Below are positions 1,101 to 37,408 of a stretch of DNA of 64,000 nt, piece by piece (position 1 is the first letter of the stretch; each line of letters begins with the position of its first letter). A program made the translations under genes and the position numbers. Source of the stretch: an uncultured Lewinella sp. (GTDB lineage Bacteria; Bacteroidota; Bacteroidia; Chitinophagales; Saprospiraceae); the NCBI GenBank assembly GCA_937873655.1, contig CALMYQ010000096.1:26439-90438 (forward strand), written 5' to 3'. The notes under the pieces are model-generated. The model was not told the DNA's origin. It was given only the letters and a program-made list of their open reading frames with translations, and searched no databases.

Positions 1101-1474
1101 GTCAGTTGTCAGTTGTCAGTGGTCAGTGGTCAGTGGTCAGTCGGGGTGTGGCAACGTTTCAGCTATTCAACGGGAGCGCGGGCCGTCAGGTCCGCCATGT
1201 CGGTAGCATCCGGGGTGCATTTTTACGTTTCCGGCCTGTAGGGCCGGTATGTGGTTGTCAGTTGTCAGTTGTCGGTTGTCAGTTGTCAGTGGTCAGTGGT
1301 CAGTGGTCAGTGGTCAGTGGTCAGTCGGGGTGTGGCAACGTTTCAGCTATTCAACGGCAGCGCGGGCCGTCAGGTCCGCCATGTCGGTAGCATCCGGGTT
1401 GCATTTTTACGTTTCCGGCCTGTAGGGCCGGTATGTGGTGGTCAGTGGTCGGTTGTCAGTTGTCAGTCGTAAGT
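1101..1474. repeat. Composite tandem repeat, period 184 bp, about 2 copies: GTCAGTK heptamer arrays alternating with a conserved ~110-bp module
   Basis: GTCAGTC GGGGTGTGGCAACG... starts at 1136 and again at 1320 (offset 184). Heptamer arrays at 1101-1142, 1254-1326 and 1439-1468. The module ...GGGCCGTCAGGTCCGCCATGTCGGTAGCATCCGG.TGCATTTTTACGTTTCCGGCCTGTAGGGCCGGTATGTGG occurs at about 1179-1253 and 1363-1438. A separate perfect 9-bp hairpin GCGACGCAT/ATGCGTCGC lies at 1476-1497. Confidence 0.9.
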
Positions 1475-1498
1475 AGCGACGCATGATGATGCGTCGCA

Positions 1499-1548
1499 AT
1501 CTGGCCGTCCTCCGTCCGCCATAGCTCCTCAAGAGCGGAGGCGGGCAG
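1499..1548 (-). repeat. Reverse-orientation copy of the ~45-bp module that is tandemly repeated at 15311-15454
   Basis: The reverse complement reads GCTGCCCGCCTCCGCTCTTGAGGAGCTATGGCGGACGGAGG, versus GCTGCCCGCCGTCGCTCTTGGGGAGCTATGGCGGACGGGGG at 15316. It supplies the last 6 codons and the TGA stop of the GT4 gene. Confidence 0.7.
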
Positions 1549-2677
1549 CATCACCCCCCAGTATCCTGTCATAAATCCCCATCAATTGCCGCGTCAGCGG
1601 TTCGCCTTTGAAGCGCTGGGCATATTGATAGCCTTCCCTGATCATCGTCGAGCGGTAATCCGAATCCGTCAGTACCTTTTCGATACCGGCGGCGATGGCT
1701 TCAGGGCTGGCCGGATCGATGAGGCAGGAATGGGGGCCGGCTGCTTCCGGCAAGGACGAAAGGTTGGACGTGACCACGGGTGTTTCGCTGAACAGCGCCT
1801 CGAGGATCGGAATTCCAAAGCCCTCGCCGAAGGACGGGTAGACAAATACATCGGCCTGTTGGTAAAGCGGCGGCAGGTCCGCAAAATCGGGTCGGATAAA
1901 GAGAACCCGGCCGGCCAGGTTGGCAGCTGACAGGTAATTTTTCACCTGCATCTCGTATTGACCGCCCCGGCCCACCACCACCAGCGGCAGATCGACCGAG
2001 GCGGGCAGGATTTCCAGGGCCTTTACCACCCCGAGCAGGTTTTTGCGCTCAACGATGGCGCCCACATACAGCAGATAGTCCTTCGGGAGGTTGTATTTGG
2101 CCAGCATCTGATCGATGGTGCGATTGGACCGTTCCTGCATGAAACGTTCGTTGCAGGACTGATAAACGACGCGAATCTTCTCTTCCGGAATTTCATAGTC
2201 ATTAATAATGTCCGCTTTGGTGGCCTCGCTGATGGCGATGATGCGGTCGGCGTTCCGGCAGGCATAGCGGAATTTGAGGTCGTAGATATAGCGATCGGCG
2301 GCATTGTACTGGCCGGTAAAGCGCCTGAAGAGGAGGTCGTGAATGGTGACCACCGATTTGATGCCGGTTTTTCGGATACCGACGGGAATCTCGTGGCTCA
2401 GGCCGTGAAACAGCTGGATATGGTGCTTCCGAAGGTCTTTTTTGATACCGGCTGTCCGCCACCAGGCAGGCCATCCGTGCCGGGGTTGCTGGACGGTGAA
2501 CAGGGGGCTGTTCAGAAAAAACTGGGTTTCCCCGTTTTTGACGACTTTGGGTGTGAACAGGTAGTAATCGTTCTCCGGGAAATAATTAGCCAGGTTTTGG
2601 ACCAACGTTCGGCTGTAATTTCCAAGTCCGGTAAAATTATTGAATAGTCTTTTTGCGTCGAAACCAATCCGGTACAT
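1529..2677 (-). CDS. Glycosyltransferase family 4 (GT-B fold)
   Basis: 382 aa. The C-terminal half carries the typical GT4 motif ...FVYPSFGEGFGIPILEALFSETPVVTSNLSSLPEAAG. ATG at 2677. Confidence 0.85.
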   Translation of the reverse strand: MYRIGFDAKRLFNNFTGLGNYSRTLVQNLANYFPENDYYLFTPKVVKNGETQFFLNSPLFTVQQPRHGWPAWWRTAGIKKDLRKHHIQLFHGLSHEIPVGIRKTGIKSVVTIHDLLFRRFTGQYNAADRYIYDLKFRYACRNADRIIAISEATKADIINDYEIPEEKIRVVYQSCNERFMQERSNRTIDQMLAKYNLPKDYLLYVGAIVERKNLLGVVKALEILPASVDLPLVVVGRGGQYEMQVKNYLSAANLAGRVLFIRPDFADLPPLYQQADVFVYPSFGEGFGIPILEALFSETPVVTSNLSSLPEAAGPHSCLIDPASPEAIAAGIEKVLTDSDYRSTMIREGYQYAQRFKGEPLTRQLMGIYDRILGGDAARLRS

Positions 2678-2879
2678 ACCAAGGGAGTATAGGGCTCATC
2701 CGTGTATAACCCGGTGCGGGGTCGACCGTCTTTAGCCGGCAGCCGGCCGTCTTTTGGATAAAAGCGAGGGCATGCTTACGGTAAAAAGCGCATCCGGTCC
2801 AGGGATGATCCGCGTTGCTTTTGCAAATTAAAACAATTTCCGGATCATCCCAATACCGAGTCGGCTAAACTGAAAAAGA

Positions 2880-3497
2880 TTACTGCATTTTCTCCATCAG
2901 GCGCTCCTTCATCTTCTGGAATTCCTCTTCCGAAAGAATGCCTTTCTCTTTCAGTTCGCCGATTTGCGCCAATTGCCGCAGGATCTCATCGTTGGGGTCA
3001 TCCGTTTTGGCGTACCGGTCTTTTTCACTCTTCCACTGGGCGGCTTTTTCCTTGCCCTTGCGGAGTTCTTCTTCGTAGTTGTCGCGGGCTTTGAGCGGAT
3101 CAAAATCGGAAAAATCGCCTCCCGCGCTGAAGTGCTGCTGGAAGACCTGACCAACGGCATAGGTGGACGCCCCCGACATGATGGCCATCGACAACCCGCC
3201 GAAAAGCGTGCCGATACCCGGGATGGCCTTCACCATGCTGGCGCCTACGCGGGCCAGCGTGCTACCGGTAAGCGCCGACAGGATCCCTTTGCCCGAATTT
3301 TCGGAAAAGGAAACGTCATAGACGCGCGCCAGTTGCTTGAGCATGTCGATCTGAACCGCCGTAACAGCAGCGATATCGAGGATCGGAATGGGCACCAACC
3401 CTGCGCCCATAGAGATCAGCACGTGGTTTTTGATTACTTCTTGAGATCTGTCGTATCTGGTATCCATATCAAAATAGATTTTATCGGATAAATTCAA
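2880..3497 (-). CDS. DUF697-like membrane-associated domain protein with a C-terminal SHOCT domain
   Basis: The N-terminal half, GAGLVPIPILDIAAVTAVQIDMLKQLARVY, resembles DUF697. The C-terminus LKEKGILSEEEFQKMKERLM is a SHOCT-type motif. The listed start at 3497 is TTG; an ATG alternative lies at 3467. Confidence 0.55.
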   Translation of the reverse strand: MNLSDKIYFDMDTRYDRSQEVIKNHVLISMGAGLVPIPILDIAAVTAVQIDMLKQLARVYDVSFSENSGKGILSALTGSTLARVGASMVKAIPGIGTLFGGLSMAIMSGASTYAVGQVFQQHFSAGGDFSDFDPLKARDNYEEELRKGKEKAAQWKSEKDRYAKTDDPNDEILRQLAQIGELKEKGILSEEEFQKMKERLMEKMQ

Positions 3498-3684
3498 TGT
3501 TCACAATTCAACAAAGTTACGGGGTACGCCGGTGCAAAGCCAATTCCTTGCGCTGAAATGACCGATTTTTTATACCATGTGGGATAATCTTTCGACACAT
3601 ATCCCTTTTTGGCTTCTTTTTAAATTCCCGGCTTTCCGGAAGTCCCGACCGCCGGGAAGCGGCAACCTTTCCTGTCAACTTTGT

Positions 3685-3692
3685 TATATTTG
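3685..3692 (+). promoter_or_regulatory. Candidate Bacteroidota -7 promoter box (TAnnTTTG) for the MscS gene
   Basis: TATATTTG at 3685-3692, 29 nt upstream of the ATG at 3721. It lies inside the implausible N-terminal extension of ORF 3577. Confidence 0.3.
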
Positions 3693-3720
3693 CGGGAACA
3701 GAACCGCCAACGCACCTGAA

Positions 3721-5037
3721 ATGAACCTGAACGAATTACTCGATGAAAAGGTAGTGCAGATCTTTGGTGAAGTCATCACAGTAGGTGAACTTTGCCTGTC
3801 CCTGCTGTTATTCGGCGCCTTACTGACGGTCTTCAGGCTGACTTTCAGGCGGTGGCTCACCAGGTATTTCCGGCTGGAAGAGATCTCCCTGGAAGAGCAA
3901 CGCCGTACCCGCCGCCTGACCGGCCTGATCTTCATCCTCCTGCTGGCTGCCGCTTTGTTGCCCATTACGGGCCTGAATCCGGTGCTGTACGAGGGATTCA
4001 CCTACTATTTCCGGACCTCGACGCTCGTGCTCATCCTGGCCGTCTTTTTTGCCGCGCGCCTGGCCGACCGGATCATTTCCAGGATACTGGCCCACAATTA
4101 TTCGATCAAACAGGAAGCGATGCGCAATATCGCGCCGAATGTAGAAGCTTCCCGCCCGCCCCTGCCGCCCAGGCGGATGGCGCAGCCGCTGATCTATCTT
4201 GGGGCCATTTTTTTGCTGTTCGGGATCATGGACTTCAACCTCTCCTTCACGTTCGCCACCGTGCAGTCCAGTTTTTCACAACTCCTGCAGGCCGTCATTA
4301 TCCTGGTCGGCGCACGATTCCTGGTCTGGATCGTTTCCGAACTGGCGCTGTTCCCCTATTTTCAGAACCGAAGCGTGGATATCGGCGCGCAATACGCCGT
4401 CAACCAACTGCTCAAATACGTCATCTATACCCTGGCCCTGCTTTGGGCCCTGGAAGTGGCGGGGTTGAAACTCACCCTGCTGTGGGGCGGCGCCGCAGCG
4501 CTGCTGGTCGGTTTGGGCCTGGGCCTCCAGCAAACCTTCAACGACCTCGTTTGCGGGGTGATCCTGCTTTCCGAACGAGCAGTCGAGGTCGGCGACGTCC
4601 TGGATGTGGACGGGCTGATCGGGACGGTCCGCAAGATCGGCCTGCGCACCTCGCTGGTGGAAACCCGCGACAACCGGACAGTCATCCTGCCCAACTCCAA
4701 ACTGGTTGCCGACAAGGTGGTCAACTGGAGCCACGACGAGCTCAAAGCCCGGTTCACCGTCAGCGTCGGCGTCGCCTATGGGTCGGATACCGAATTGGTC
4801 AGAAAAATATTGTTGCAAGTCGCGGAAGCCCACCCAAAATCCCTGAAAAAACCGGCGCCATTCGTTCGTTTCATGAATTTCGGCGACTCTTCCCTCGATT
4901 TCGAGCTCTTCTTCTGGTCCAGGGAATTCCTCAAGATCGAGGACGTCCGCAGCGATATGCGTTTCGAGATCGACCGGCTCTTCCGGGAAAACAACGTTAC
5001 CATTCCTTTCCCGCAACGGGATGTCTGGATGCGGTAG
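3721..5037 (+). CDS. Mechanosensitive ion channel, MscS family
   Basis: Several N-terminal TM helices followed by the conserved MscS core GDVLDVDGLIGTVRKIGLRTSLVETRDNRTVILPNSKLV. I prefer the ATG at 3721 (MNLNELL...). The 48 codons from 3577 are Cys-rich and low-complexity and contain a promoter-like box. Confidence 0.85.
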   Translation: MNLNELLDEKVVQIFGEVITVGELCLSLLLFGALLTVFRLTFRRWLTRYFRLEEISLEEQRRTRRLTGLIFILLLAAALLPITGLNPVLYEGFTYYFRTSTLVLILAVFFAARLADRIISRILAHNYSIKQEAMRNIAPNVEASRPPLPPRRMAQPLIYLGAIFLLFGIMDFNLSFTFATVQSSFSQLLQAVIILVGARFLVWIVSELALFPYFQNRSVDIGAQYAVNQLLKYVIYTLALLWALEVAGLKLTLLWGGAAALLVGLGLGLQQTFNDLVCGVILLSERAVEVGDVLDVDGLIGTVRKIGLRTSLVETRDNRTVILPNSKLVADKVVNWSHDELKARFTVSVGVAYGSDTELVRKILLQVAEAHPKSLKKPAPFVRFMNFGDSSLDFELFFWSREFLKIEDVRSDMRFEIDRLFRENNVTIPFPQRDVWMR

Positions 5038-5104
5038 GTAAAATTCTGAATGAACCATTGTTTTTTTACCCCATAAGGCCTATAAGTTCACATAAGTTTT
5101 TCAT

Positions 5105-5130
5105 TGCAATTGCGCCTCTGCGCAATTGCA
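5105..5130 (+). terminator. Perfect 11-bp stem hairpin downstream of the MscS gene
   Basis: TGCAATTGCGC-CTCT-GCGCAATTGCA, about 70 nt after the stop at 5037. It is followed by a moderately T-rich stretch, not a clean T-tract. Confidence 0.4.
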
Positions 5131-5220
5131 TTAGCTCTTCTTATCTGTCCTGATGATTCTGATGTGGTAAAATACAAGCCGAACCAGAATGGTTTGGCAA
5201 AGGGTTTTCAGGGTAAGGCT

Positions 5221-5324
5221 GTTGATCTGTTGATTTGAGCGTGATCGTATTCAAATCAACCACCGGCCGACGTAGCTTCAAAAGAGCAAAGGCGGCAAAT
5301 AACCAAATCAACGCATCAACAAAT
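5221..5324. repeat. GTTGATKT word array with a complementary AAATCAAC-type array (word-array hairpin family)
   Basis: GTTGATCTGTTGATTTGA ... TCAAATCAAC forms a 10-bp stem (5229-5238 with 5251-5260). Further complementary words CAAATCAACGCATCAACAAATC lie at 5303-5324. Confidence 0.7.
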
Positions 5325-5440
5325 CCGGCGCATCCCCGAATTTGGTTATCCGCAAGACCTTTTTCCACGCCGGCTTGTTAAATAACAATATGCCCCGCAG
5401 GAGGTCGTTATCTTTGCAGTTCAAATTACGGGTATTGAAT

Positions 5441-8400
5441 ATGAAGAAGTTTTACCTCGCATTCGGCCTGATCCTCTCGCTGGCGTTTGCCGTCCAGGCC
5501 CAGACCACTATACGGGAGAGCCTGGAATGGAGTGCAGCGCCGGTAACCGTACAGGGCCCTGAAGGCGAATACCAACAATGGTCCTTCAAAGGCGGCGCCA
5601 TCGGCGAACGCTATCCAGGCGTGCCTTTCTACAGCGCTGAAATCCCGGTCAGCGGCCCGGGATCGCTGCGGGTTACTGTTCTCGATGCCCGTTATGAAGA
5701 CCTGCCCTGGAAAGGCGCCCCCGGACAAGCCGCCATCGGCTCCGACCTGCGGTTCGAAACCCGGGTGGAACGCGATCGCCGGCAATTTTCCGGCATTGTC
5801 GCCTTCACGCCCATCATCCGCGACGGCGACCGCTACCGGCGATTGGTGGACTTCACCCTCCAGGTTACCCTCATACCGGACCAGGCCGGCGCCCCGCGCG
5901 GGCCGGTTTATGCCGAGACATCGGCCCTCGCAGACGGGGATATCTATAAAATTGCCGTGGCGGAAGACGGCGTTTACAAACTGACCTACGACTTCCTGAA
6001 AAAAGACCTCGGTATCGAGAACCTGGATCAGATCGACCCCCGCACCATCAAGATACTCGGCAACGGCGGCGGCATGGTACCGGCCTACAGCGTTGCCGAC
6101 CGGCTTGACGACCTTCAGGAAAACCGGATCGCCGTACAGGGCGAAGGCGACGGTAAATTCGATTCCGGCGATTATATCCTCTTCTATGCGGAAGGCCCCG
6201 ACAAGTGGACCTTTGATCCGGACGCCCGCACCTTTACCCTGCAGAAGAACATCCACGATGCCCGGAATTATTATTTCATCAAGATCAGTTCGGGCAACGG
6301 ACTCCGGGTTGAAGCCCGGAATAATATCCAGGCGCCGGAATTTTCAACCACCCAGTTCTCCGATTACCGCCGGGTGGAAGAAGACCGGCAAAACCTGTTG
6401 TACGACTGGACGACCACCCGCATGGGCGCCGGCCAGGATTGGTTCGGCGACTGGTTCAAGACCGCCCGGGAATATTCCTACAAAAACCTGTTCACCTTTC
6501 CCAATATCGCTACCGGCGAACCCGCTGAGGTCCGGGTGGAAATGGTCCTGCGAGCCAACGTAAGCTCCAGGTTCCAGGTCCAGGTGAACACCGGCTCCAA
6601 TCTCCAGAGTTCCCTGGCTTCCAGCACCCGCGTAGGCACTTCCAGCGACTATACCGACAGCTATGCCAACCGGGCCGCGGTGAATACGAACGTCAACCTG
6701 AGTCAGGACAATGTCGACTTCAAGGTAGCCTATCCCGTACCGGCAGGAGCCAGCCAGGAAACGGAAGGCTGGCTCGACTTTATCCAGGTCACCGCCCGCC
6801 GGAAACTGATCATGGCCGGCGACCAGATGGCCTTCCGGGATCCGGCGACACTGGATTACGGCAATGCCACCTACAACCTGCAACAAGCGGCCGACGGCAT
6901 CCTGATCTGGGATATTACCAACCCCTTGTCGCCGTTGAGCCAGCAGGCGCAGCGGAGCGGCACGACCCTGTCTTACGGCGTCGCCAATACCGGTGAATTG
7001 CAGCAGTTCGTCGCTTTCAACCCGGCGCAAACCCTGCTCAAGGCTGAAGCCGTGGGCAAGATCCCCAACCAGAACCTGCACCGGCTCGGACTTTCGCCGG
7101 TGGACATGGTGATCGTCTACCACCCGGATTTCGAGGCCGCCGCCGAAAAACTGGCCGAACACCGGCGAAGCCACAGCAACCTGACCGTTGAGACCGTCAA
7201 CGTGGCGGATATTTATAACGAATTCGCGTCCGGCAAACTCGACCCCGCCGCTATCCGCGATCTGGTTAAAATGGTCTATGATCGCTATGAGAACTTTGCC
7301 TATTGCCTGCTGGTCGGCGACGGCTCCTTCGATTCGAGGGATGTCTACGGGTTGGGCGGAAATTTCATCCCGACCTACCAGACCCGGTCGCTCAATTCGA
7401 TTTATGCCTTCCCGGCCGACGACTACTTCGGCGTGCTCAACGGCAGCAGCGCCGCCGATCCCGTACAGGGCAAGCTCAACGTATCGATAGGCCGGCTCCC
7501 GGTCAAAACCCTGGAAGAGGCGGAGCTTTCCGTTGACAAGATCATCCATTACGATACCAGCCCCAAAGCATTCGGCGACTGGCGCAACCGCCTGGTTTTT
7601 GTCGGCGACGACGAGGACAGCAGCGCCCATACCATGGACGCCGACGAGATCGCCGAAAAGGTGCTGCAAAATTTCCCCGACTTCAATGTCGACAAGCTGT
7701 TCCTGGACGCCTACCCGCAGGAAGCTACCCCCGCGGGCGACCGGTTCCCTGCAGTGAACGAAGCCATCGGCCGGTCGCTCTACCGCGGCGTGCTCGCCAT
7801 GGTCTACCTCGGTCACGGCGGCCCGAAAGGTTGGGCTCAGGAACGTGTGCTGAACATTCCGGACATCCGCGGCTGGCAAAACTACGACCACCTGACCCTG
7901 CTGGTCACGGCCACCTGCTCGTTCACCGGATATGACGACCCGTCATTCGTATCAGCGGGCGAAGAATCGTTCCTCAACCCCAACGGCGGCGCAGTGGGAC
8001 TGCTGACGACGACGCGTCCGGTTTATGCCAATGAAAATGCCTATCTGACGGAGGTGACGCTGCTCAACCTCTTCCAGCGCGACAACGGCAAGATCCTCAC
8101 GCTCGGCGACGCTTTCCGCCGGGGCAAAAATTCGAACCTGTCCAGCGGGTTCACCACCAATACCCGCAAATTTACCCTGATCGGCGACCCGGCCATGCTC
8201 ATTCCGGTGCCCAACTACGGCGTTGCGACCACCGCCATTGACAACAAACCGGTTACCGGCGGTCAACTGGACACGCTCAAGGCGCTCCAGAAGGTGACCA
8301 TCAGCGGGATGGTCCTCGATGAAACCGGCCAGCCCGCTGCCAATTTCAACGGACTGGTCTACCCCACCATTTACGATAAAAAACTGGATGTAACCACCCT

Positions 8401-29906: not shown

Positions 29907-29937
29907 TGCATTAATTTCCTGCTTACAAAATCCCCTC

Positions 29938-30669: not shown

Positions 30670-30738
30670 GAGGATTCGAAAATGCGAGGATTTGAGGATG
30701 CGAACCGAATCTTCAAATCCTCTAATGCTCGCATCCTC
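30670..30738. repeat. GAGGATTT-type word hairpin containing the stop codon of the DUF3999 gene
   Basis: Left arm GAGGATTCGAAAATGCGAGGATTTGAGGATGCG, loop AACC, right arm GAATCTTCAAATCCTCTAATGCTCGCATCCTC. The stop codon is at 30738-30740. Confidence 0.85.
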
Positions 30739-31913
30739 TACCCTTCCCCCCCCTTCCTCATCATCCGTACCGTAAACCACCCCAGCGCCAGGATCACCAC
30801 GCCCATAATGCCCCACAGCCAGTTCTTGTTGGCAAACAGCGGTTGGCGGGCGGCGGCTTCTTCCTGACGGATGTCCTCTTCGGGCCCCAGGGACAGGGAA
30901 GTGAGTTTCGCAGGGATATTGTCCTCAAAGCGGTCGATGTCGTACAAGGGCTTTACGGCATTTTGGCGCCCGTAGGCCAGGAAATAGTCGGCCGGCGTCG
31001 TAAACCGCAGGGTGAGGGTATGTTCGTAGCCCTTCAGTTCCATTTTCCCGAAATTCAACGGCATATTGTCATCGTTGTACACTACGATCCGCCATTGCCG
31101 GGAGATGGCGCCTTCGAACCGGAATTCCCGCTTTTCGAGCGAGCTCAGGGTACCGGTCGACAAGGTGGCAAAGCGATAGCGCCACCCGTTCTGGGTTTCC
31201 ACGCTGTCCCTCAGGTATTGGATGGACAAGGGGCGGTAAAAATCAAAGGTATCCGCCACATTGATCCGCAGAAAAGCGGCGGGCAAGGGCATTTTCAGGA
31301 ACAGGTCAATGACCGTTTGTTTTTCATCCTTGTCCTCCTCAATATGCGTGGAGTCAACGGCATAAGTACGGTAACTGCCCTCTACGACGGATTGTTCCCA
31401 TATCCTGGCCGTTTCCAGTTCGGGGTCGGTGTCCGTATGGACCGTAAGCCGGACGTAAGCGTATTTGGCGTCCTTGAATTTCACGCGGGTGAACCGGTAA
31501 TCGGTTATGTCATTCTCGATGGCCAGTATCCGGTAATCCTTGACGATGGTAAACCACTCCTTCTGGTCCTGGCTGCCTTCGAGGGTAATGCGCCAGTCGA
31601 AATTTTCCCGGTCAAAGTCGAATTCGATGGTATTGATGATGCTGTCGGCCGGCACTTCAAAGGTATAATAGAACCCCTGGTCGTTGGACGTCTGGTTGAT
31701 CAGGTTGAAGGGGACCTCCGTTTCCACCCGTTCATCCGCGGCCACTTTCAGGATATACGGCGCCTCGAGCGTGTCCCTGGCAGGCGTAATCCCGAACACC
31801 CGGATATCGGACAGGTCGGGCGAGAGCTTGCCGAATATTTCGTCGGGCAAAGCCAGCTTGTGCCATTGGTTTTTGATGCCTTGCAAGGGGCGCTTGTAGT
31901 GGTACTGATCCAT
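30738..31913 (-). CDS. DUF3999 family protein; N-terminus unresolved
   Basis: The body (MDQYHYKRPLQGIKNQWHKLALPDEIF ... C-terminal TM WLWGIMGVVILALGWFTV) fits DUF3999, the usual neighbour of DUF2339. The coordinates use the ATG at 31913. A signal-like ILLPFLLLPLLAGAQ lies immediately upstream with no ATG/GTG/TTG. The next in-frame ATG is at 32186. The listed 600-aa ORF (TTG at 32540) reads through repeat arrays. Confidence 0.6.
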   Translation of the reverse strand: MDQYHYKRPLQGIKNQWHKLALPDEIFGKLSPDLSDIRVFGITPARDTLEAPYILKVAADERVETEVPFNLINQTSNDQGFYYTFEVPADSIINTIEFDFDRENFDWRITLEGSQDQKEWFTIVKDYRILAIENDITDYRFTRVKFKDAKYAYVRLTVHTDTDPELETARIWEQSVVEGSYRTYAVDSTHIEEDKDEKQTVIDLFLKMPLPAAFLRINVADTFDFYRPLSIQYLRDSVETQNGWRYRFATLSTGTLSSLEKREFRFEGAISRQWRIVVYNDDNMPLNFGKMELKGYEHTLTLRFTTPADYFLAYGRQNAVKPLYDIDRFEDNIPAKLTSLSLGPEEDIRQEEAAARQPLFANKNWLWGIMGVVILALGWFTVRMMRKGGEG

Positions 31914-31952
31914 TTGGGCGCCTGCCAGAAGGGGGAGGAGGAGGAAGGGGAG

Positions 31953-32038
31953 GAGGATTTGAGGATTTGAGGATTTGAGGATTTGAGGATGCGAGGATTT
32001 GAGGATTTGTTGATTTGTTGATGTGTTGATGTGTTGAT
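31953..32038. repeat. Octamer array GAGGATTT x about 7 grading into GTTGATKT x about 4
   Basis: GAGGATTTGAGGATTTGAGGATTTGAGGATTTGAGGATGCGAGGATTTGAGGATTTGTTGATTTGTTGATGTGTTGATGTGTTGAT. It lies directly 5' of the DUF3999 coding body on the minus strand. Confidence 0.9.
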
Positions 32039-32246
32039 ATGGCCTGCCGTGCGGCACCAGGGGTTGGCGCGAAAGGTCAGCAATTCTTTTAGACCGTCCG
32101 GAGTGAAACCGTTTGGAGTTTTGTGTCAACAGGATTTTTATCCCGCACAATATGTTGAAAATCAATTTTTTATACCTTTGCGCCATTGCGAGACCCCCCC
32201 TTTTTTGAACATGCTCAGCTCTTCCTGCCAATCGGCTGCTGGCTAT

Positions 32247-32455
32247 CGAAACGCCACTTACGACTTTCGACTTACGACTTATGACTCCCCCCTGACCACT
32301 GACCACTGACAACTGACAACTGCCAATTGGCGAAACGCCACTTACGACTTTCGACTTATGACTTACGACTCCCCCCTGACCACTGACCACTGACAACTGA
32401 CAACTGCCAATTGGCGAAACGCCACTTACGACTTTCGGCTTATGACTTACGACTC
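32247..32455. repeat. Tandem repeat, unit 84 bp (12 heptamers), 2.5 copies
   Basis: Units start at 32247, 32331 and 32415. Each unit parses entirely into 7-mers: CGAAACG CCACTTA CGACTTT CGACTTA CGACTTA TGACTCC CCCCTGA CCACTGA CCACTGA CAACTGA CAACTGC CAATTGG. It ends 6 nt before the DUF2339 stop codon (32461). Confidence 0.9.
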
Positions 32456-32460
32456 CATAT

Positions 32461-34842
32461 CTAGGCTTCATCAAATATCGTGTTCTTATATTTATTGTAA
32501 AGGAACGAAATGACCAGCAATAAAACGCCGAGCGACACAAAAATGATCGTTTTGCCGATCGTGCTCAAATGGGCGATGTCGTACAGGAAGAGCTTGAGCA
32601 ATGTGATGCCGAACAGAGCGATCGCTGTAATGCGCAAATAGCCCTTGCGCCGCCAGATACCCAGCACGATCAGCAGGAGGGAATAAATGCCCCACAGGAT
32701 GCTCAGCCCCAGTTTGTAGGACTGGCCGGGATCCGCGATATCCATCCAGTGTATCCATTCGCTGCTGGCGACCCACAACAGGGTCAGGTGAAGCACTATC
32801 TCGAACGGGACCTTCAGGTTGGCGTTGATGAGCGTACGGTTCCGGATATAGCGGCCGGTGGCAAACAGCAGTCCCGCAAGAAAAGCCAGCGAGACGTAAC
32901 GGATATAGAGATTCCAGCTCCCGGCGCTGAAATATTCGGATTGCGAAGGCGTCAGGTAACTCTCCCGCAACAGGCTCAGGGCATACAACCCGCCCACAAG
33001 GAAGGACAGGATCGTCAGCGCGCTGACCACCAAATTGACAGCCGCCAGGATGCGGCTCCTGAGCCACCCCAGGTTGAGAAAAGACAGGATCGTTAAAAAG
33101 CCCATGGTATAATTCAGCATCCAGATGACCTTGTACTGGAGAAAGTCATTGTTGTAAACAGGATAGGAATAATCGTACGCATCCGGCGGCGACATCACCG
33201 CTGAACCCCAGTACAGGCCATCGAACCAGGCGTTGATCTCCACCTGCCCCGTGAAGTAGAGGGTGAGGAGGAGCATGGTTGCGAGCGCGATGCGCATGGA
33301 GGATTTGAGGATTTGAGGATTCGAAAACGCCATCCTCGTATCCTCCGATCCTCGCATCTTCGAATCTTCCCAACGAATAAAAAAGAAGGAAACGGCCACC
33401 AGGATCCCCGTCAGAAACTGCACATTCCAGAACGGCCTGACAGACTTCATCACAACCTCTTCCGTCTGGTATTGAAATTGGGGATAAAAGGTCATCCAGT
33501 CCTGCACCAGGCTGAAAAAGGCCAGGAACATGAGCGGATAGGACATTTTTTCGTACACCGGTACGTTTCTCGACCGGCCGATCCAGAACAGCAGAGCGGC
33601 CTCGGCAGCCCAGATCAGGGTCACCCAGTTTCCGTCGAGCTGAACGGGGAAAGTGAGGGTGAGGAAAACCAGCACCAGGCCCGAGACCAGGTAGAACAGG
33701 TTGCGGTCGGCCAGTTTGCCGCGGTAAATGACGGCGCTGACGATGAAGTGCACGATCGCGTTGGCCAGGGTGAACAGGCCCAAAAGCTCCGCTCCTTGTT
33801 TCTGCCCGGAAAGGATGGCGTACCCCATTCCGTAAAAGACAAACGAATTGAGCAGCAACGAAGCGATATCGCCGAAATTGAACTGCTCTTTTTGCAGCAA
33901 CTTGTACCCCAGAAAGGTGAGGTAGAATTCGATGAAAAAGACCGCCGCGAAGGTCATGGCCAGGGTGAAGTGTTTGGCGGCGTCGTATTCCAGGTTAAAC
34001 CACGACAGGAAGATCAGCCAGGTCAGCCCGAATGCGGCGTAAAAGGCCACCTTCCAGTTTTTCCGGAAGGCGATGACCAGAATGCCGGCGTTCACGATGG
34101 CCATATACGCAAACAAAAAGGCGTAATTGCCGCTGCCGTCGCTGAGCAGGAAGGGTACCCCGTACGCGCCAACAAGTCCGATCAGAACGATAACCTGTTT
34201 GTTGTAATTCAGTGCGGCCAACGCGGTGAAGACCGTAAAAAAGGCCATCAATCCGAAAGTGAGCGGTTGGGGGATCAGGTCGTAAAAACCGTGAGCCGCA
34301 AACGTGATGAAGTACAGGATGGCCATGGCCCCGCTGAGCAGCACCGCGCTGAAGTTGGGGTATTTCGCTTTCAGCCTGACCGCAAACCCAAACAGCGCCA
34401 ACCCGGCGGCATAGCCAAGGACGATGCGTGTGAGCGGACTAATCAGGTCGTGGTCGATGGCGTATTTCGCGCCGATGGCTACCCCGATCACCAGAATGGC
34501 GATGCCGATGGTAGCGATCAGGTTCTCGCCGATGAATTTCTCGATATTGGACCTGGACCGCGGCGGCCGGACCGGCGGCGGGGGTGGGAGATGCGTTTCG
34601 GGTTTTGGCGGGGCCGGTTGTTCCCACACCTGTTTCGGCAGGGGCGGCGGCTTGGGTACAGCGGGTTCCGCAGGTTTGACGGGTTCCGGTGTGGGTCCTT
34701 GCTGCGCTTCGGGTTGCCCGTAACGCAGGTATTGCACTTCTTTCGAAATGGCGTCGACCTCCCTTGAAAAGGCCTCTTGTTTTTTCAGCAATTCGTCGAG
34801 CTTGTCGAGCAGCTGTTTGATCCGGTCATCGTTTTCTGGCAT
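32461..34842 (-). CDS. DUF2339 family polytopic membrane protein
   Basis: 793 aa. N-terminal coiled-coil (MPENDDRIKQLLDKLDELLKKQEAF), Pro-rich linker, then about 20 hydrophobic helices, which is the standard DUF2339 layout. A DUF3999 gene lies downstream. Confidence 0.8.
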   Translation of the reverse strand: MPENDDRIKQLLDKLDELLKKQEAFSREVDAISKEVQYLRYGQPEAQQGPTPEPVKPAEPAVPKPPPLPKQVWEQPAPPKPETHLPPPPPVRPPRSRSNIEKFIGENLIATIGIAILVIGVAIGAKYAIDHDLISPLTRIVLGYAAGLALFGFAVRLKAKYPNFSAVLLSGAMAILYFITFAAHGFYDLIPQPLTFGLMAFFTVFTALAALNYNKQVIVLIGLVGAYGVPFLLSDGSGNYAFLFAYMAIVNAGILVIAFRKNWKVAFYAAFGLTWLIFLSWFNLEYDAAKHFTLAMTFAAVFFIEFYLTFLGYKLLQKEQFNFGDIASLLLNSFVFYGMGYAILSGQKQGAELLGLFTLANAIVHFIVSAVIYRGKLADRNLFYLVSGLVLVFLTLTFPVQLDGNWVTLIWAAEAALLFWIGRSRNVPVYEKMSYPLMFLAFFSLVQDWMTFYPQFQYQTEEVVMKSVRPFWNVQFLTGILVAVSFFFIRWEDSKMRGSEDTRMAFSNPQILKSSMRIALATMLLLTLYFTGQVEINAWFDGLYWGSAVMSPPDAYDYSYPVYNNDFLQYKVIWMLNYTMGFLTILSFLNLGWLRSRILAAVNLVVSALTILSFLVGGLYALSLLRESYLTPSQSEYFSAGSWNLYIRYVSLAFLAGLLFATGRYIRNRTLINANLKVPFEIVLHLTLLWVASSEWIHWMDIADPGQSYKLGLSILWGIYSLLLIVLGIWRRKGYLRITAIALFGITLLKLFLYDIAHLSTIGKTIIFVSLGVLLLVISFLYNKYKNTIFDEA
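33298..33369. repeat. GAGGATTT-type word hairpin lying in frame inside the DUF2339 coding sequence (24 codons)
   Basis: Plus strand GGAGGATTTGAGGATTTGAGGATTCGAAAACGCCATCCTCGTATCCTCCGATCCTCGCATCTTCGAATCTTC. It is translated on the minus strand as EDSKMRGSEDTRMAFSNPQILKSS, between two hydrophobic helices. Confidence 0.85.
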
Positions 34843-34877: not shown

Positions 34878-34956
34878 GGGAATTTGAGGATTTGAAGATG
34901 CGAGGGTTTGAGGATTTGAGACGCCCGTTTTCAAATCAACACATCAACAAATAAAC
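34878..34956. repeat. GAGGATTT-type array followed by complementary AAATCAAC-type words, upstream of the DUF2339 gene
   Basis: GGGAATTTGAGGATTTGAAGATGCGAGGGTTTGAGGATTTGAG-ACGCCCGTTT-TCAAATCAACACATCAACAAATAAAC. Confidence 0.8.
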
Positions 34957-35020: not shown

Positions 35021-35166
35021 TAAGAGACAACGGGCGCATGAAACCGGGTGTTTCACCTGCTGAAAAGCGCCCCGCCGACAACTTTTTTCTGAAGGATCAA
35101 CCCCATTTTCTAAGGACCCAGCGTATCCTATAAACTCTATTTATAACCTTTAAAACATCTTTCCTG

Positions 35167-36807
35167 ATGAGAACAGTTTGTTCAATTCTCTTCCTGACCC
35201 TCCTGTTTGCAGCCGGTTCGCTCTCCGGCCAACGGCTAACCGACAAAAGGGCGCGAATTACCTACGTCTCTCTACCCGAGAAAAAGCTACCGGACGAATT
35301 TACGACTTACTCCGTATCCATTTTCGGCAGCACCATGGTGGGCGCCGGCTACCATGCCGAATCAGCCGGAAAACTGATCAAAATGGACGGCTTCATGCGG
35401 GTCGGCTACTCCACCACTGACGGCGGCGGCCACCTCCGGATTTTTGTCAACACCGGTACCGTGTACATGGGCCGTTCGGAGTTGAAGTCAAAGAAAAACA
35501 CCGTAAAGGACAAAAAAACAGGTAAGGAAACCGTCACCTGGGAGTATTGGTACGAGATCCCTTTCCAGGCGGCGCCGACCTACAACATCTACGACCCGGA
35601 CGGGAATATCCTGGCTTCCGGCGGCGGCAACCGGAGCGAAAACAAGCGGACCCGCGTTTACAGCAACCCGACCGACCTCAACAAGAACTCCGGCCGCCTC
35701 ATTACCGAACTGAGGAAAGACTTTTCCAAAAACGCCACCGACGGGATCATTGCCGAAGTCAACACCACCCTTTCCAGATATTTTGATTTCAACAAAACGT
35801 CTGATAATCCGGAGTTTTACCTCATTGTCAACCACGATACGGAGGATAACTTCAAAAAATATTTCGAACAACTGGACACCGAGTGGAAAGCCCTGGACGC
35901 CGCTACGCCGGCCAGCGAATTAAGATCACAATTCGGCGATGCGCTGGCTTTTTACGAAAAAACGGCCGAAATGGATCCCAAAGGCGACAAAAAGCTATCC
36001 AGGGTCTTTGAAGCCGCCAATTACGACGCCGCCCTGCTGAATTTTTACCTCGACGATTTTGAAAAAGCCGTCAAGTATGCCAACAGGGTGATCGCCCAGG
36101 AAGATGGGAAACACAGGAAATCAGCTGACCTCATCGAGCGGATCCAGAAGGTAAAAGCATTAATGGATCTGCACGGCATCCATACCCTCCACTTCGCACG
36201 GGATCTGACCAATGCCATGGCCCCGTCGGCCCTGAAAGCGCTTGAAAAGGAACAGACCGAGCTCGAGAGCAAGAACAACTTGCTGGACGGCACGATCACC
36301 GTCAACGGAGAAACCGTCTCCGGCACCTTCCTGAGTGAAAAAGAATCCGGCGAGCTGGATTTCAGCCAGAAGGGAAATACCAAATTCAAGGCGCAAATGG
36401 ACGATAAGGAAACGGAATACGACCTGACGGCAAAGGAAGTATCCGCCTTTTCGATCGGCGACCGGAATTTTGTGAAAATGACCTTTTCGCCCAGCGCCAA
36501 AGGCAAATCGGAAGCCGGCACCCATATCCTTGAGGAGATCTATGCTTCCGACAAGATCAACCTGTATAAATATTACCCGTCCAGCGGGGCGTTAAACGAC
36601 GCCAAAACGGAATTTGCGTTCAGGAAAGCCGCAGAGGAAGTCCCGGTATCCTTGTATGACACGCGGTTCCTGATCCTGAAGAAAGGCCTGGCCGACTATT
36701 TCGCCGACTGCGCAGACCTGAAAGCCATGTGCGAAGGCGAAGGCTTTGAGCTCGAACAGGAAAGCCTGCTGAAGGCTGCCAGGATCTATGCGGAGGTTTG
36801 CAAATGA
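35167..36807 (+). CDS. Secreted hypothetical protein (546 aa), no family recognised
   Basis: Signal peptide MRTVCSILFLTLLFAAGSLSGQ. Coding-like composition, with a Lys/Glu/Asp-rich middle. One TPR-like helix pair (AANYDAALLNFYLDDFEKAVKYANRVIAQ). Confidence 0.7.
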   Translation: MRTVCSILFLTLLFAAGSLSGQRLTDKRARITYVSLPEKKLPDEFTTYSVSIFGSTMVGAGYHAESAGKLIKMDGFMRVGYSTTDGGGHLRIFVNTGTVYMGRSELKSKKNTVKDKKTGKETVTWEYWYEIPFQAAPTYNIYDPDGNILASGGGNRSENKRTRVYSNPTDLNKNSGRLITELRKDFSKNATDGIIAEVNTTLSRYFDFNKTSDNPEFYLIVNHDTEDNFKKYFEQLDTEWKALDAATPASELRSQFGDALAFYEKTAEMDPKGDKKLSRVFEAANYDAALLNFYLDDFEKAVKYANRVIAQEDGKHRKSADLIERIQKVKALMDLHGIHTLHFARDLTNAMAPSALKALEKEQTELESKNNLLDGTITVNGETVSGTFLSEKESGELDFSQKGNTKFKAQMDDKETEYDLTAKEVSAFSIGDRNFVKMTFSPSAKGKSEAGTHILEEIYASDKINLYKYYPSSGALNDAKTEFAFRKAAEEVPVSLYDTRFLILKKGLADYFADCADLKAMCEGEGFELEQESLLKAARIYAEVCK

Positions 36808-36903
36808 CCGGAAGGCCATTAGACCAGGCGTTTAAACCTGATTCGCGCCTAAAGACATTCCGAATTTTGGGATTGTCGACTTACCCGGGCCAACGGACGA
36901 AGA

Positions 36904-37112
36904 GCAATAAAAAAGGTAAGGATATGGCCATTTTTTGCTTGCTTTTCCTGAGGGGGAGTCTGGGAAACAGCCGAAAAGTACGAATATCCCGGGGGCTATT
37001 GATTTTATTTTGAACCACAAAAGCCACAAAAGAAAACAAAAGCCATTGGCCCTGAATCCCGGCGGGATTCAGGGTCAGTTTAAACTTTTGTGCCCTTTTG
37101 TTTCTTTTGTGG
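36904..37112. repeat. MITE-like ~210-bp element, copy B (inverted relative to copy A at 22603-22811)
   Basis: Tail 36904-37014 matches the reverse complement of 22701-22811. Palindromic core CCACAAAAGCCACAAAAGAAAACAAAAGCCATTGGCCCTGAATCCCG/CGGGATTCAGGGTCAG...CTTTTGTTTCTTTTGTGG at 37015-37112. Confidence 0.8.
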
Positions 37113-37355
37113 TAAAAAAACAGGAAAAACTCGTGTTAGGGCATCTTCCCGTCATCGGCAGCCTGATTGCCCTGATGGAAATCCTTTGGAGCCAACAAAA
37201 CAGCCGATTTTAAGCGAAAGCTTGCGGTTTTTTGCATGTTTACGCTTAAATCCAGAAATGGCTCATGGATCCTACCGTAAAAAAAGCGGCAACCCCGGAA
37301 CCCGGAATTGCCGCTCATCTATCCGTTTAACCTTTATTTTTTCAGCCCTTTCCGG

Positions 37356-37408
37356 ACTGATCACTGACAACTGTCAACTGTCAACTGACAACTGACAACT
37401 AATCACTG
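37356..37408. repeat. AACTGAC/CACTGAC heptamer array (complement of GTCAGTK) overlapping the rhodanese stop codon
   Basis: ACTGATC ACTGACA ACTGTCA ACTGTCA ACTGACA ACTGACA ACTAATC ACTG. The stop codon is at 37403-37405. Confidence 0.85.

Follow-up and report, generated by a model that had tools for sequence, protein, structure and literature searches.

Tandem arrays of 7- to 9-base words in the intergenic spaces of a Flavilitoribacter (Bacteroidota) genome

The intergenic spaces of this Flavilitoribacter (Bacteroidota) genome are dense with tandem words of 7, 8 or 9 bases, often joined by their complement as a hairpin. The arrays are tandem repeats of a small genome-wide word vocabulary and lie almost wholly between genes, tight against gene ends. 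On balance, we think it likely that they are slippage-generated microsatellites with 7- to 9-nt units, whose orientation was filtered through selection on start and stop codons.

Word arrays in the window and in other genomes

About 20 array loci were found in the window (the whole 64,000-nt stretch of DNA that was analysed). Every array listed in an earlier note was recovered by TRF with the word given there, at the same position or a few bases off. Our own scan of the window for arrays of at least 3 copies detected five of period 7 and two of period 8, and none in any of five shuffles; periods 4 to 6 and 9 to 12 yielded essentially no arrays. Across 124 sequences, arrays of period 7, 8 and 9 numbered 98, 216 and 38, respectively, the period-8 count being inflated because 120 of the analysed loci were chosen via an octamer search pattern. 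Genes at 123 loci were called crudely, by longest ORF.

The proposal that these loci form a pervasive class of short words, rather than a fixed-sequence family such as REP, ERIC or MITE, was borne out. Identical words were met at several loci of the window and again in relatives; the window mixes no fewer than eight unrelated words, and hairpin loops show no relation from one locus to the next. The sole Rfam match in the window was a tRNA. The class also extends beyond the window: related genomes share words, and eight contigs of one related MAG match the search pattern. Each word had been described as stop-free in one orientation only. The arrays do explain the phantom ORFs and over-long gene calls; the property itself is ordinary, being shared by 37-39% of random 7/8-mers, and the non-random feature is the orientation of the words relative to genes.

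The largest arrays (1099-1474, 31953-32038, 32247-32456 and 37356-37408) are direct only and unstructured, with fold z about 0. The first is a 184-nt higher-order tandem duplication (x2.0; TRF period 184, 94% match), whose unit is a heptamer array plus a 112-nt module with two small GC-rich hairpins; copies of this module lie at 1178, 1362 and 16507. Within it, TRF found GTCAGTK x6 at 1099-1141 (direct, unstructured, z +0.2), which lies 7 nt upstream of an ABC-ATPase start (1091, minus strand) and has the A+C-rich sense CAACTGA/CCACTGA. GTCAGTK x10 follows at 1254-1325 (direct; TRF and own scan), and GTCAGTK x4 passing directly into CGTAAGT lies at 1438-1474 (TRF), 54 nt downstream of a GT4 stop. 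The third module copy follows GTCGTAA x3.4 at 16483-16580, as seen by sequence inspection. At 31953-32038, GAGGATTT x8 passes into GTTGATKT x5 (direct; TRF and own scan; unstructured, z -0.7), and the single-base grading noted earlier, from GAGGATTT to GTTGATTT to GTTGATGT, is present here. The sense of this array is AAATCCTC/AAATCAAC (minus strand), and it precedes the annotated ATG of DUF3999 by 39 nt. An 84-nt higher-order unit (ACTTACG x4.4 plus CTGACMA x5) is repeated 2.5 times at 32247-32456 (TRF; unstructured), beginning 6 nt past the DUF2339 stop, and ACTGACA x7 (sense TTGTCAG) at 37356-37408 (TRF) overlaps the rhodanese stop codon. Smaller arrays identified by TRF comprise CTGGATR x6 followed by a 50-nt unit x3.2 (15273-15464), which begins 1 nt past an ECF-sigma stop and whose 50-nt unit is GGATGCT x2 plus a 36-nt GC-rich hairpin module; CCTCTCAC x2.6 (19057-19077), overlapping the stop of a 271-aa ORF (orf271, minus strand); and CCCTCTCA x2.1 (29933-29949; sense GTGAGAGG), which contains the response-regulator stop codon.

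Dense arrays characterise this particular lineage. The window and L003 carry 3.8-5.4 arrays per 10 kb, against 0-0.9 in the neighbourhood of the same gene of four other Bacteroidota. Within the window, the region from 38 to 64 kb has no arrays. Arrays of GNNGATTT were found in many Bacteroidota, Acidobacteriota and Chloroflexota, in a collection scanned without control words; in viral contigs this word gave 9 matches and its permutations 14, 6 and 12, so that it was no commoner there.

Hairpins and terminator-like elements

Pairing of a word with its complement had been taken as the usual state. This holds for about half of the roughly 20 loci, the remainder, including the largest arrays, being direct and unstructured. 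The hairpin loci start at 5219, 10811, 13392, 15827, 30670, 33298 and 34878, and are joined by two elements of 9-nt words (22594-22720 and 37014-37112) that were absent from the earlier list; fold z ranges from -2.3 to -9.4. Between MscS and C25 peptidase genes, a small hairpin of GTTGATYT x2 and AAATCAAC, a GC-rich hairpin module and AAATMAMC x3.5 occupy 5219-5326 (z -2.3). The hairpin at 10811-10903 (TRF; -36.3 kcal/mol, z -6.7) has AGTCGTA x4 as its 5' arm and ACTTACR x5.7 as its 3' arm, with the PorV stop 59 nt before it and the LpxK start 31 nt after it. A single-word hairpin of GTTGATTTGCC and GGCAAATCAAC, with a GC-rich module and CAGATCAA x2.2, lies at 13392-13474 (TRF; z -3.7), 49 nt ahead of a GT2 start. 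TTGAGGAA x6 and TCGATTCC x3 form the hairpin at 15827-15910 (TRF; -34.6 kcal/mol, z -3.0), which adjoins the SRPBCC/AHSA1 stop (15911, minus strand), and GAGGATKY x4 and ATCCTCNN x4 form that at 30670-30738 (TRF; -37.4 kcal/mol, z -5.7), which overlaps the DUF3999 stop. An imperfect hairpin of GAGGATTT x5 and AAATCAAC x3 (34878-34956; TRF; z -2.8) lies 39 nt upstream of the DUF2339 start.

The earlier note suggested that the hairpins are transcription terminators. For the 7/8-nt hairpins this is highly unlikely, even though their folds are stable (-20 to -37 kcal/mol) and many directly follow stop codons. Their polarity is the reverse of that of an intrinsic terminator, with A+C-rich sequence and no U-tract after the stem, and we rejected them as classical intrinsic terminators on this ground. 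One is intragenic, and others occupy spaces between genes of the same orientation and positions a short way ahead of starts. None was flagged by a terminator scan that did flag a canonical terminator at 37284-37316 (minus strand; a GC-rich hairpin of 15 pairs, 9 of them GC, with the T-run tail TTTTTACGGT), which is separate from, and downstream of, the rhodanese array. The scan also flagged as terminator-like the core of the 9-nt-word element at 22594-22720 (CACAAAAGN x3, a GC-rich stem-loop and CTTTTGTGN x3; -56.5 kcal/mol, z -8.1), whose arm polarity is opposite to that of the 7/8-nt hairpins. Judged from its sequence, its layout of A-rich arm, GC stem and U-rich arm is that of a putative bidirectional intrinsic terminator. 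Its paralogue at 37014-37112 (-54.1 kcal/mol, z -9.4) is likewise terminator-like, lies between convergent genes and has a conserved counterpart at the orthologous position of L001 and L167.

Position and orientation relative to genes

Almost all arrays had been placed at the 3' ends of genes. There is indeed an excess at stops, with 68 of 163 arrays adjoining stop codons compared with 37.5 expected under uniform placement; start codons are abutted equally often, and the 33298-33369 array is intragenic. In the window, seven genes (ECF sigma, SRPBCC, orf271, response regulator, DUF3999, DUF2339 and rhodanese) have their stop codon next to or within an array, and arrays precede five starts, at 7 nt (ABC), 31 nt (LpxK), 39 nt (DUF3999 and DUF2339) and 49 nt (GT2).

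Orientation follows position. Among the 124 sequences, arrays within 10 nt of a stop have a G+T-rich sense in 57 cases and the opposite in 7 (p 8e-11), and where only one strand of the array carries stop triplets, the sense is that strand in 46 cases versus 8. Within 50 nt upstream of a start, the sense is A+C-rich in 89 cases versus 34, and of the arrays with start triplets on a single strand, 94 have the triplet-free strand as sense versus 32. The window arrays fit this rule at all seven stops (one near-neutral) and all five starts. Hairpins are also polarised: 49 of 57 pairs have a G+T-rich 5' arm (7 opposite, 1 neutral), by word 26 to 0 in the GATTT-word family and 23 to 7 in other words. 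This holds in every gene context, including the only four hairpins far from both gene ends, all of usual polarity.

Under the slippage reading, slipped-strand mispairing would create, lengthen and shorten the arrays; the inverted partner arms would come from intrastrand template switching (inverted duplication), and gene conversion would partly homogenise the arms. Selection would then pick the orientation that survives at each position. Beside a stop, this would be the G+T-rich sense, with stop triplets in all three frames, so that an array creeping into the gene end still terminates translation. Beside a start, it would be the A+C-rich, G-poor sense, lacking ATG, GTG and TTG and lacking structure. 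Bacteroidetes lack Shine-Dalgarno sequences and rely on low structure near the start, where AUG is depleted (PMC6847099); a structure-free leader without start codons suits this mode of initiation. Together, the two rules would yield the near-universal 5' G+T-rich/3' A+C-rich hairpin polarity in every gene arrangement. Where both arms are transcribed, long stems would form in which helices of 6-7 bp alternate with 2-nt internal loops, and such stems may protect or insulate transcripts.

The same strand rules at stops and starts could mean that the arrays are selected gene punctuation, kept because they function. A G+T-rich array would then provide all-frame stops after a gene, with a hairpin insulating or stabilising the upstream transcript, and an A+C-rich array, free of structure and start codons, would act as a leader or ribosome landing site that needs no Shine-Dalgarno sequence. 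The excess at stops, the lack of structure in direct arrays, the initiation requirements of Bacteroidetes (PMC6847099), the conserved positions of array hairpins across the window and relatives as far as L003, and the translational control that MacGregor proposed for TAACTGA repeats just upstream of starts (PMC4679880) all agree with this. However, tolerance alone predicts identical strand rules, many window genes, including all of those at 38-64 kb, lack arrays, and in close relatives the surroundings of the same genes are free of them. Some conserved sites have not kept their arm complementarity, as in the window, where the hairpin at 34878 reaches only z -2.8, and Rehm et al. found no regulatory role for heptamer repeats (PMC4692102). 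We consider a punctuation function unlikely.

Orthologous sites and published counterparts

Arrays stay at the same sites across species, with changes in copy number and word variants. Five orthologous sites have retained them, with protein identity as low as 63%. At the response-regulator stop, GTGAGAGG is present twice in the window versus 8.5 times in the L003 ortholog; at the rhodanese stop, TTGTCAG is repeated about 6-7 times in the window versus three times in L001. The hairpin site at 34878-34956, upstream of DUF2339, is conserved in L001, L002 and L003; here the window and L001 have the same 5' arm but different 3' arms, with AAATCCTC in one case and AAATCAAC in the other. Comparison of orthologous sites also showed one hairpin unit in L001 versus three in L002. 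Copy-number change between strains did not emerge: the sole same-species difference was in the 84-nt unit at 32247-32456, which may reflect assembly collapse.

The array at 33298-33369 (minus strand) proved not to be at a gene end, as had been thought. It is a hairpin of GAGGATNN and ATCCTCNN (z -3.8), in frame within the coding sequence of DUF2339 (about aa 491-515), where it is translated as EDSKMRGSEDTRMAFSNPQILKSS in a variable loop of this membrane protein. The loop word differs among three lineages (GAGGATNN, GAAGAATC/TTCCTCAG or TCACCCCC). Units of 7 and 8 nt shift the frame, so that an intragenic array could switch its gene on and off, and this raises the idea that arrays are recombination or phase-variation hot spots, or sites for a word-specific DNA- or RNA-binding factor. 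A small vocabulary reused at many loci of one genome and synteny breaks at arrays would fit. Yet the copies in this intragenic array are imperfect, and four assemblies of the species carry it unchanged, the unrelated words in the window are numerous and not G4-forming, neighbouring genes share no common function, and neither Rehm (PMC4692102) nor MacGregor (PMC4679880) found a functional pattern. We give such roles very little credence.

The 30670-30738 hairpin at the DUF3999 stop is missing, at a precise point, from the L003 spacer, which otherwise aligns; the L001 rhodanese array holds an inserted GC-rich hairpin absent from the window ortholog; and synteny between L001 and L002 breaks exactly at arrays. 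GC-rich hairpin modules recur inside arrays (1178, 1362, 16507, 15327-15428 and 1536), the window has two copies of the 9-nt-word element, which remain similar into their flanks, and two Thermoanaerobaculia loci have similar hairpin loops. These observations would suit non-autonomous MITE- or REPIN-like mobile elements with word-array inverted ends and a transposase encoded elsewhere, the arrays being landing pads for smaller GC-rich hairpins. We find this improbable. From locus to locus, the 7/8-nt hairpins have unrelated loops, and both words and arm length show continuous variation. Orthologous arrays change in situ, and no target-site duplication could be recognised. Copies of the 9-nt element are few, with its core on only two metagenome contigs, and no transposase was noticed in an unsystematic look that covered Pfam analysis of about 20 array-flanking window ORFs and the called genes of fetched loci.

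Several observations also weigh against slippage-generated microsatellites. Slippage from random seeds does not explain the reuse of a few words at many loci in one genome, or arrays of GNNGATTT across Bacteroidota, Acidobacteriota and Chloroflexota. For a filter that acts by selection alone, 26 to 0 is a very strict polarity; given that only four hairpins lie far from gene ends, an intrinsic generating mechanism may be at work. Persistence at five orthologous sites could mean that the arrays are functional.

The claim that the family is undescribed did not survive comparison with the literature. Tandem 7-nt arrays have been published for Xanthomonas and Nostoc, where they form convergent inverted pairs able to fold into stem-loops, overlap stop codons and have conserved loci of variable length (Rehm 2015, PMC4692102); they share the strand rule, convergent pairing and stop-codon overlap of the window arrays. 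TAACTGA arrays are known from Beggiatoaceae, Cyanobacteria and Bacteroidetes (MacGregor 2015, PMC4679880), one base apart from the window's CAACTGA. The window arrays belong to the same class as the cyanobacterial STRR heptamers, Xanthomonas GGGAATC, Nostoc GGGGAYT and the TAACTGA repeats. They are thus a new example of an architecture already known from Xanthomonas, cyanobacteria and Beggiatoa, not a new kind of element.

Inventory, structure and distribution of the word arrays

The window carries tandem arrays of short words, many of which lie near an array of the complementary word with which they can form a hairpin. TRF returned period-7 and period-8 arrays at every locus named in an earlier note made from the sequence, with identical words, and the raw sequence agrees. 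A self-match scan of the window found five period-7 and two period-8 arrays of at least three copies, against none in shuffled sequence, and other periods were essentially without arrays. The existence of the arrays claimed in the earlier note is confirmed by these data, and the arrays are a real and striking feature of the window. Single words recurred at many loci: GAGGATTT and GTCAGTK at five window loci each, GTTGATKT at four and CGTAAGT at three. The octamer pattern GWKGATTT matched eight contigs of GCA_964558465.1.

All intergenic spacers of the window were read for additional arrays. This revealed weak arrays of the word GTGAGAGG at 19057 and 29933, two near-identical hairpin elements built from a 9-nt word (22594-22720 and 37014-37112), and higher-order tandem units of 184, 84 and 50 nt. 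No arrays were found by this reading between 38 and 64 kb, despite several spacers of 170 to 470 nt; one array-free spacer contains a tRNA gene (44882-44955), which was the sole window match in Rfam 15 at gathering score, with no array matched. TRF also reported a 486-nt tandem repeat (3.3 copies, 73 to 79% identical) at 52360-53942, inside a 3016-aa ORF (47917-56967); it probably codes for domains that recur within a large surface protein. On a gene map produced with a codon-usage caller and Pfam, the loci of 7/8-nt words were intergenic with one exception, and a few short period-8/9 TRF matches fell within coding sequence too. The DUF2339 protein (32461-34842) matched a Flavilitoribacter sp. 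MAG protein at 100% identity; this genus is a member of the Lewinellaceae (Saprospirales, Bacteroidota).

Folding indicated that word/complement hairpins make up about half of the loci, with energies of -12 to -57 kcal/mol and fold z-scores of -2.3 to -9.4. The largest window arrays were direct only and unstructured (z of about 0). Hairpin stems consist of 6- to 7-bp helices; variation in the final one or two bases of each word splits them by internal loops of 2 nt. Small GC-rich hairpin modules of two families also were seen, always inside or adjoining word arrays, one family of the form GCGGGCCGTSAGGTCCGC...CCGGCCTGTAGRGCCGG and the other CCGCC..GCTCTTGGGGAGC..GGCGG with a shared GCCATAGC motif. 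Modules are located at 1176-1253, 1360-1437, 16507-16580 and 15318-15450 (three copies, with a reverse complement at about 1500-1545), and related sequences at 5262-5300 and 13418-13455.

Three comparison loci from other assemblies carried arrays built from words identical or related to those of the window: L001 and L002 (DUF2339 87% identical to that of the window) and L003 (63%, same gene order). Orthologous arrays in these loci and the window occupy conserved sites and vary in length and sequence. At the response-regulator stop, orthologous spacers contained GTGAGAGG 2 versus 8.5 times, and at the rhodanese stop TTGTCAG was present 6 versus 3 times. In all four sequences, the DUF2339 start is preceded at about 36 nt by an array hairpin; the window and L001 share an identical 5' arm and differ in the 3' arm, which is either AAATCCTC or AAATCAAC. 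Similar GC-rich modules were present in the L001 and L003 arrays, and the rhodanese array of L001 has an inserted 20-nt GC-rich hairpin that its window ortholog lacks. The L001 and L002 contigs encode an identical 813-aa DUF2339 protein and differ exactly at array hairpins: upstream of DUF2339 there is a single hairpin unit with a divergent 546-aa gene in L001, and there are three hairpin units with a 23S_rRNA_IVP/bAvd-like gene in L002. The arrays are therefore points of broken synteny. The window hairpin that follows DUF3999 is missing from the otherwise alignable L003 spacer.

The DUF2339 and DUF3999 genes overlap by 17 to 29 nt in four more distant Bacteroidota, in which array density around DUF2339 was 0 to 0.9 per 10 kb, versus 3.8 to 5.4 in the window, L003 and a further comparison locus (L125). 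This makes high density a trait of the lineage and the array-filled spacer of 220 to 550 nt between the two genes a derived one. The only differences among four same-species assemblies were a single 84-nt unit and N-gaps within its array; they were not accepted as strain copy-number change, being indistinguishable from assembly collapse. The N-gaps lie inside the 84-nt array of two public assemblies (L124, at 12460-12560, and L126), and pattern matches occurred at the contig ends of, e.g., L004, L015, L022, L028, L034, L078 and L080. The gaps and the many contigs ending within arrays indicate that arrays fragment short-read assemblies.

A scan of 185,579 species genomes for three units of GWKGATTT gave at least 120 stretches. 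Among the matches listed for this pattern, most were from Bacteroidota (about 27 from Saprospiraceae/Lewinellaceae, and many from Bacteroidales, Chitinophagaceae and Flavobacteriales), with 14 from Acidobacteriota, 4 from Chloroflexota, 3 from Cyanobacteria/Melainabacteria, 6 from Proteobacteria and 1 from an archaeon. In viral contigs, three copies of GTTGATTT were no commoner (9 matches) than permuted words (14, 6 and 12). The word is thus not special in viral contigs, and we claim neither that the sharing of GNNGATTT across phyla is significant nor that the word itself is special.

Placement and strand at gene starts and stops

Seven window arrays adjoin or include a stop codon, and five are located 7 to 49 nt upstream of a start codon. 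All of them obey one strand rule (7/7 at stops and 5/5 at starts). The rule was derived from 124 sequences (0.95 Mb) comprising the window and 123 further loci, 120 of which had been picked with the octamer search pattern; gene calls at these loci were crude longest ORFs, in which stops are exact and starts approximate. For arrays no more than 10 nt from the stop of an ORF of at least 200 aa, the sense strand was G+T rich in 57 cases versus 7, and where only one strand carried stop triplets, the carrier was the sense strand in 46 cases versus 8. For arrays no more than 50 nt upstream of a start, the sense strand was A+C rich in 89 cases versus 34, and where only one strand carried start triplets, the sense strand was the one free of them in 94 cases versus 32. 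G+T content and start/stop-triplet content are almost fully confounded as causes of the rule.

The arms of the hairpins were similarly ordered. With a pair taken as an array and its complement within about 90 nt, the G+T-rich arm was 5' in all 26 pairs of the GATTT-word family (26 to 0) and in 23 versus 7 pairs of unrelated words. This polarity was seen in convergent, tandem, divergent and intragenic contexts, with only four hairpins far from genes available for its assessment.

The earlier note had placed almost all arrays at 3' gene ends. Stop-abutting arrays were indeed enriched, with 68 of 163 observed versus 37.5 expected under uniform placement in the same spacer, but the word arrays are associated with gene starts no less than with gene ends. 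The enrichment was visible only in this distance-to-stop test and not by spacer class; under the crude ORF calls, Saprospiraceae spacers were alike in array presence whether divergent (11/25), tandem (26/66) or convergent (4/18). The same note had stated that each word is stop free in one orientation. We reject this as a design feature because 37 to 39% of random words share the property.

The proposal that the hairpins are terminators did not survive for the 7/8-nt words. These hairpins have A+C-rich sequence after the stem and no U-tract, the reverse of the polarity of an intrinsic terminator, and a consensus terminator scan flagged none of them. A GC stem with a U-tract was found only in the 9-nt-word element and at 37284-37316 (minus strand), a canonical terminator downstream of the rhodanese array. 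Polarity in the 9-nt-word element (A-rich arm, GC stem, U-rich arm) is opposite to that of the 7/8-nt hairpins, and the core of the element was flagged by the scan. Its copy at 37014-37112 lies between convergent genes, at an orthologous site conserved in L001 and in another comparison locus, L167. By sequence criteria, the most likely identity of this element is that of a bidirectional terminator whose tracts are periodic. A sigma-70 promoter scan was uninformative for Bacteroidota.

Arrays within and beside coding sequence

The intergenic rule has its exception in the hairpin at 33298-33369, which lies inside the DUF2339 coding sequence. Pfam aligned the entire 793-aa DUF2339 protein in one stretch, array included, and the array translates in frame as EDSKMRGSEDTRMAFSNPQILKSS. 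Alignment with 10 homologues revealed that the array lies in a variable loop, which is short in distant relatives and carries GAAGAATC/TTCCTCAG in L001 and TCACCCCC in L003. A phase-variable contingency locus would have a perfect SSR, in a coding region or promoter, whose copy number differs between strains. The copies of this intragenic array are imperfect, and the octamer array in the neighbouring spacer is identical in the four same-species assemblies, whose one difference, the 84-nt unit, may be an assembly artefact.

On the other side of that spacer, the DUF3999 gene has an ambiguous start. DUF3999 homologues start with a signal peptide, and translation of the gene is coupled to that of DUF2339 in other Bacteroidota. 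Ahead of the annotated ATG (31913), the same reading frame in the window encodes a hydrophobic stretch resembling a signal peptide (LLPFLLLPLLAGAQ). Its coding sequence is a CT-rich tract that is continuous with the AAATCCTC array (31913-31990, minus strand), with no ATG, GTG or TTG in between. The corresponding regions are at 5925-5997 in L001 and about 12620-12700 in L003; the latter has a GTG in this region and no Met where the window has its annotated ATG. Translation of DUF3999 may in fact begin at a non-canonical codon (ATC or ATT) or at a site well upstream, and part of the array therefore may be coding. An AT-rich unique segment (32060-32240, minus-strand sense) between the two array blocks of this spacer is identical in the four assemblies and may hold a new internal promoter of DUF3999.

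Arrays also affect public gene calls. One call is a 92-aa ORF across the 9-nt-word hairpin (36935-37213, plus strand, in the window; 7630-7908 in L124), and another is a 492-aa DUF3999 (12402-13880 in L003), about 100 aa of which run through arrays. Because array strands are stop free, these calls are phantom or overextended, in agreement with the earlier note's explanation of phantom ORFs. In a Caldilineaceae MAG (L074), a 2314-aa ORF at 963-5524 has many in-frame 7/8-nt arrays, which give peptides such as INQSTNQP and GLGIGDQ in apparent linkers preceding repeated ...IVAAKTGY segments. From their sequence these segments are possibly carrier-protein-like domains of a megasynthase, and the case suggests that word arrays can supply interdomain linkers.

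Relation to described repeats and possible origin

Like REP/BIME/REPIN elements and MITEs, the window arrays are intergenic, hairpin forming, locally dense and mosaic, and the small GC-rich modules embedded in them resemble REP units. Unlike these families, the 7/8-nt hairpins are without a fixed consensus, and their arms are periodic and variable in length. No shared imperfect palindrome of 20 to 40 nt was found, since loops and arm lengths differ between loci, and no RAYT transposase was detected among about 20 array-flanking window ORFs run against Pfam. MITEs were rejected because loops were unrelated between loci and no TSD was present at the presence/absence site after DUF3999. The 9-nt element likewise is not a high-copy MITE, with two window copies and its core in only two metagenome contigs. 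The earlier note's separation of the arrays from fixed-sequence families thus stands. Two further likenesses are narrower and are no more than resemblances. The SDRs of Nostoc, reportedly described by Elhai in 2008, are said to be tiny GC-rich hairpin modules nested in short-word (heptamer) arrays, and they resemble only the GC-rich modules of the window. Rickettsia palindromic elements, palindromic repeats that are tolerated in frame within protein-coding genes, resemble only the in-frame DUF2339 array. Heptamers known as STRRs were reportedly described in cyanobacteria by Mazel in 1990; that work is not known to have described the hairpin layout or a strand rule at gene ends.

A literature search for the exact word strings returned nothing relevant. 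The class of array, in contrast to what the earlier note supposed, is a described one. Rehm et al. (2015) reported the heptamers GGGAATC in Xanthomonas and GGGGAYT in Nostoc, about 90% of whose arrays are intergenic, with 70 to 75 convergent pairs per genome in Xanthomonas, few in Nostoc, and the ability of such pairs to form stem-loops (PMC4692102). The G-rich strand is coding at 0 to 50 bp after stops (overlap included) and non-coding at 0 to 50 bp before starts; the loci are retained from species to species but vary in length and sequence, and no function was found (PMC4692102). The window arrays are tandem arrays of short words with this same layout and strand rule (PMC4692102), so the class is known. 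They share with long SSRs a head-to-tail unit of 5 to 11 nt repeated beyond chance length, a bias to non-coding DNA, one word at many loci of one genome, conserved loci of varying length and sequence, convergent pairs with the G-rich arm 5', and a G-rich strand that is coding after stops and non-coding before starts. They differ from the Rehm heptamers in having many coexisting words, units of 7, 8 and 9 nt, higher-order units of 50, 84 and 184 nt, one array pair translated within a gene, and a host in the Bacteroidota (Lewinellaceae). No window word has a run of three or more G residues, as the G-quadruplex subclass of Rehm et al. does; judged by their words, the window arrays belong to the general long-SSR class, outside that subclass.

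MacGregor (2015) described intergenic TAACTGA arrays of patchy distribution in Beggiatoaceae, Cyanobacteria and five Bacteroidetes, in the last of which they are often mixed with other heptamers (PMC4679880). Their forward orientation contains stop codons, the reverse is translatable, and arrays lie a few nucleotides upstream of starts; 169 sets of direct repeats were counted in the BOGUAY genome, against a single indirect repeat (PMC4679880). Similarly, window positions 1099-1141 read CAACTGA six times, forward, 7 nt before an ABC start. The window units, however, are CAACTGA (one base off) or CCACTGA rather than TAACTGA itself, further heptamer arrays of the window follow stops in reverse orientation, and about half of its loci are inverted pairs, whereas those of BOGUAY are nearly all direct. 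The octamer and nonamer words of the window are not described for TAACTGA repeats (PMC4679880). LSSRs (Mrazek 2007, as summarized in PMC4679880) have units of 5 to 11 nt, most commonly heptamers, occur in sporadic lineages, and are proposed to arise by polymerase slippage. The window units resemble LSSRs as summarized there, and STRRs, in being short, heptamer type and lineage sporadic; that summary of the survey describes no word/complement hairpin layout or strand rule. The window arrays are an addition to a described class, not a new family, and what is new is the host lineage, the many coexisting words of 7, 8 and 9 nt, the lack of G-quadruplex words, and the in-frame array in a membrane protein loop.

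The best-supported account of the arrays is slippage and template switching, followed by an orientation filter. Arrays would grow by slippage, and inverted partners would arise by template switching. An array growing toward a stop would be harmless only if its sense strand had stops in all frames, and one growing toward a start only if its sense strand were without start codons and structure; this second filter would matter particularly in Bacteroidota, because they are without Shine-Dalgarno sequences and AUG is depleted near their starts (PMC6847099). Together, the two filters predict the hairpin polarity that was seen, whatever the arrangement of the genes. The account does not explain why a small vocabulary is reused across loci, why the polarity is so strict or why arrays persist so long at given sites, and the arrays therefore may be selected gene punctuation or the product of an intrinsic generating mechanism. 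We consider it improbable that strict polarity and small vocabulary are the signature of a dedicated generating process and not a by-product of selection. Such a process, perhaps one in which the G+T-rich strand folds back and primes itself or some other activity that extends ends, would be shared by scattered lineages of Bacteroidota, Acidobacteriota, Chloroflexota, Cyanobacteria and Xanthomonas and would build new intergenic spacers and new protein loops; its product would serve as sequence-independent gene punctuation. Examples would be the DUF2339 loop and the DUF2339/DUF3999 spacer of 220 to 550 nt, at whose site the two genes overlap in relatives.

In practical terms, arrays break assemblies, create phantom ORFs and extend gene calls, and genuine proteins can gain residues from them, the DUF2339 loop being a case. 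The published positional rules extend to unrelated 7- and 8-nt words of this lineage that are not G-quadruplex formers, which argues against G-quadruplex chemistry as the common explanation of bacterial microsatellites of the 7-nt class (STRR, LSSR, TAACTGA and GGGAATC) and points to a simple logic of start and stop codons.
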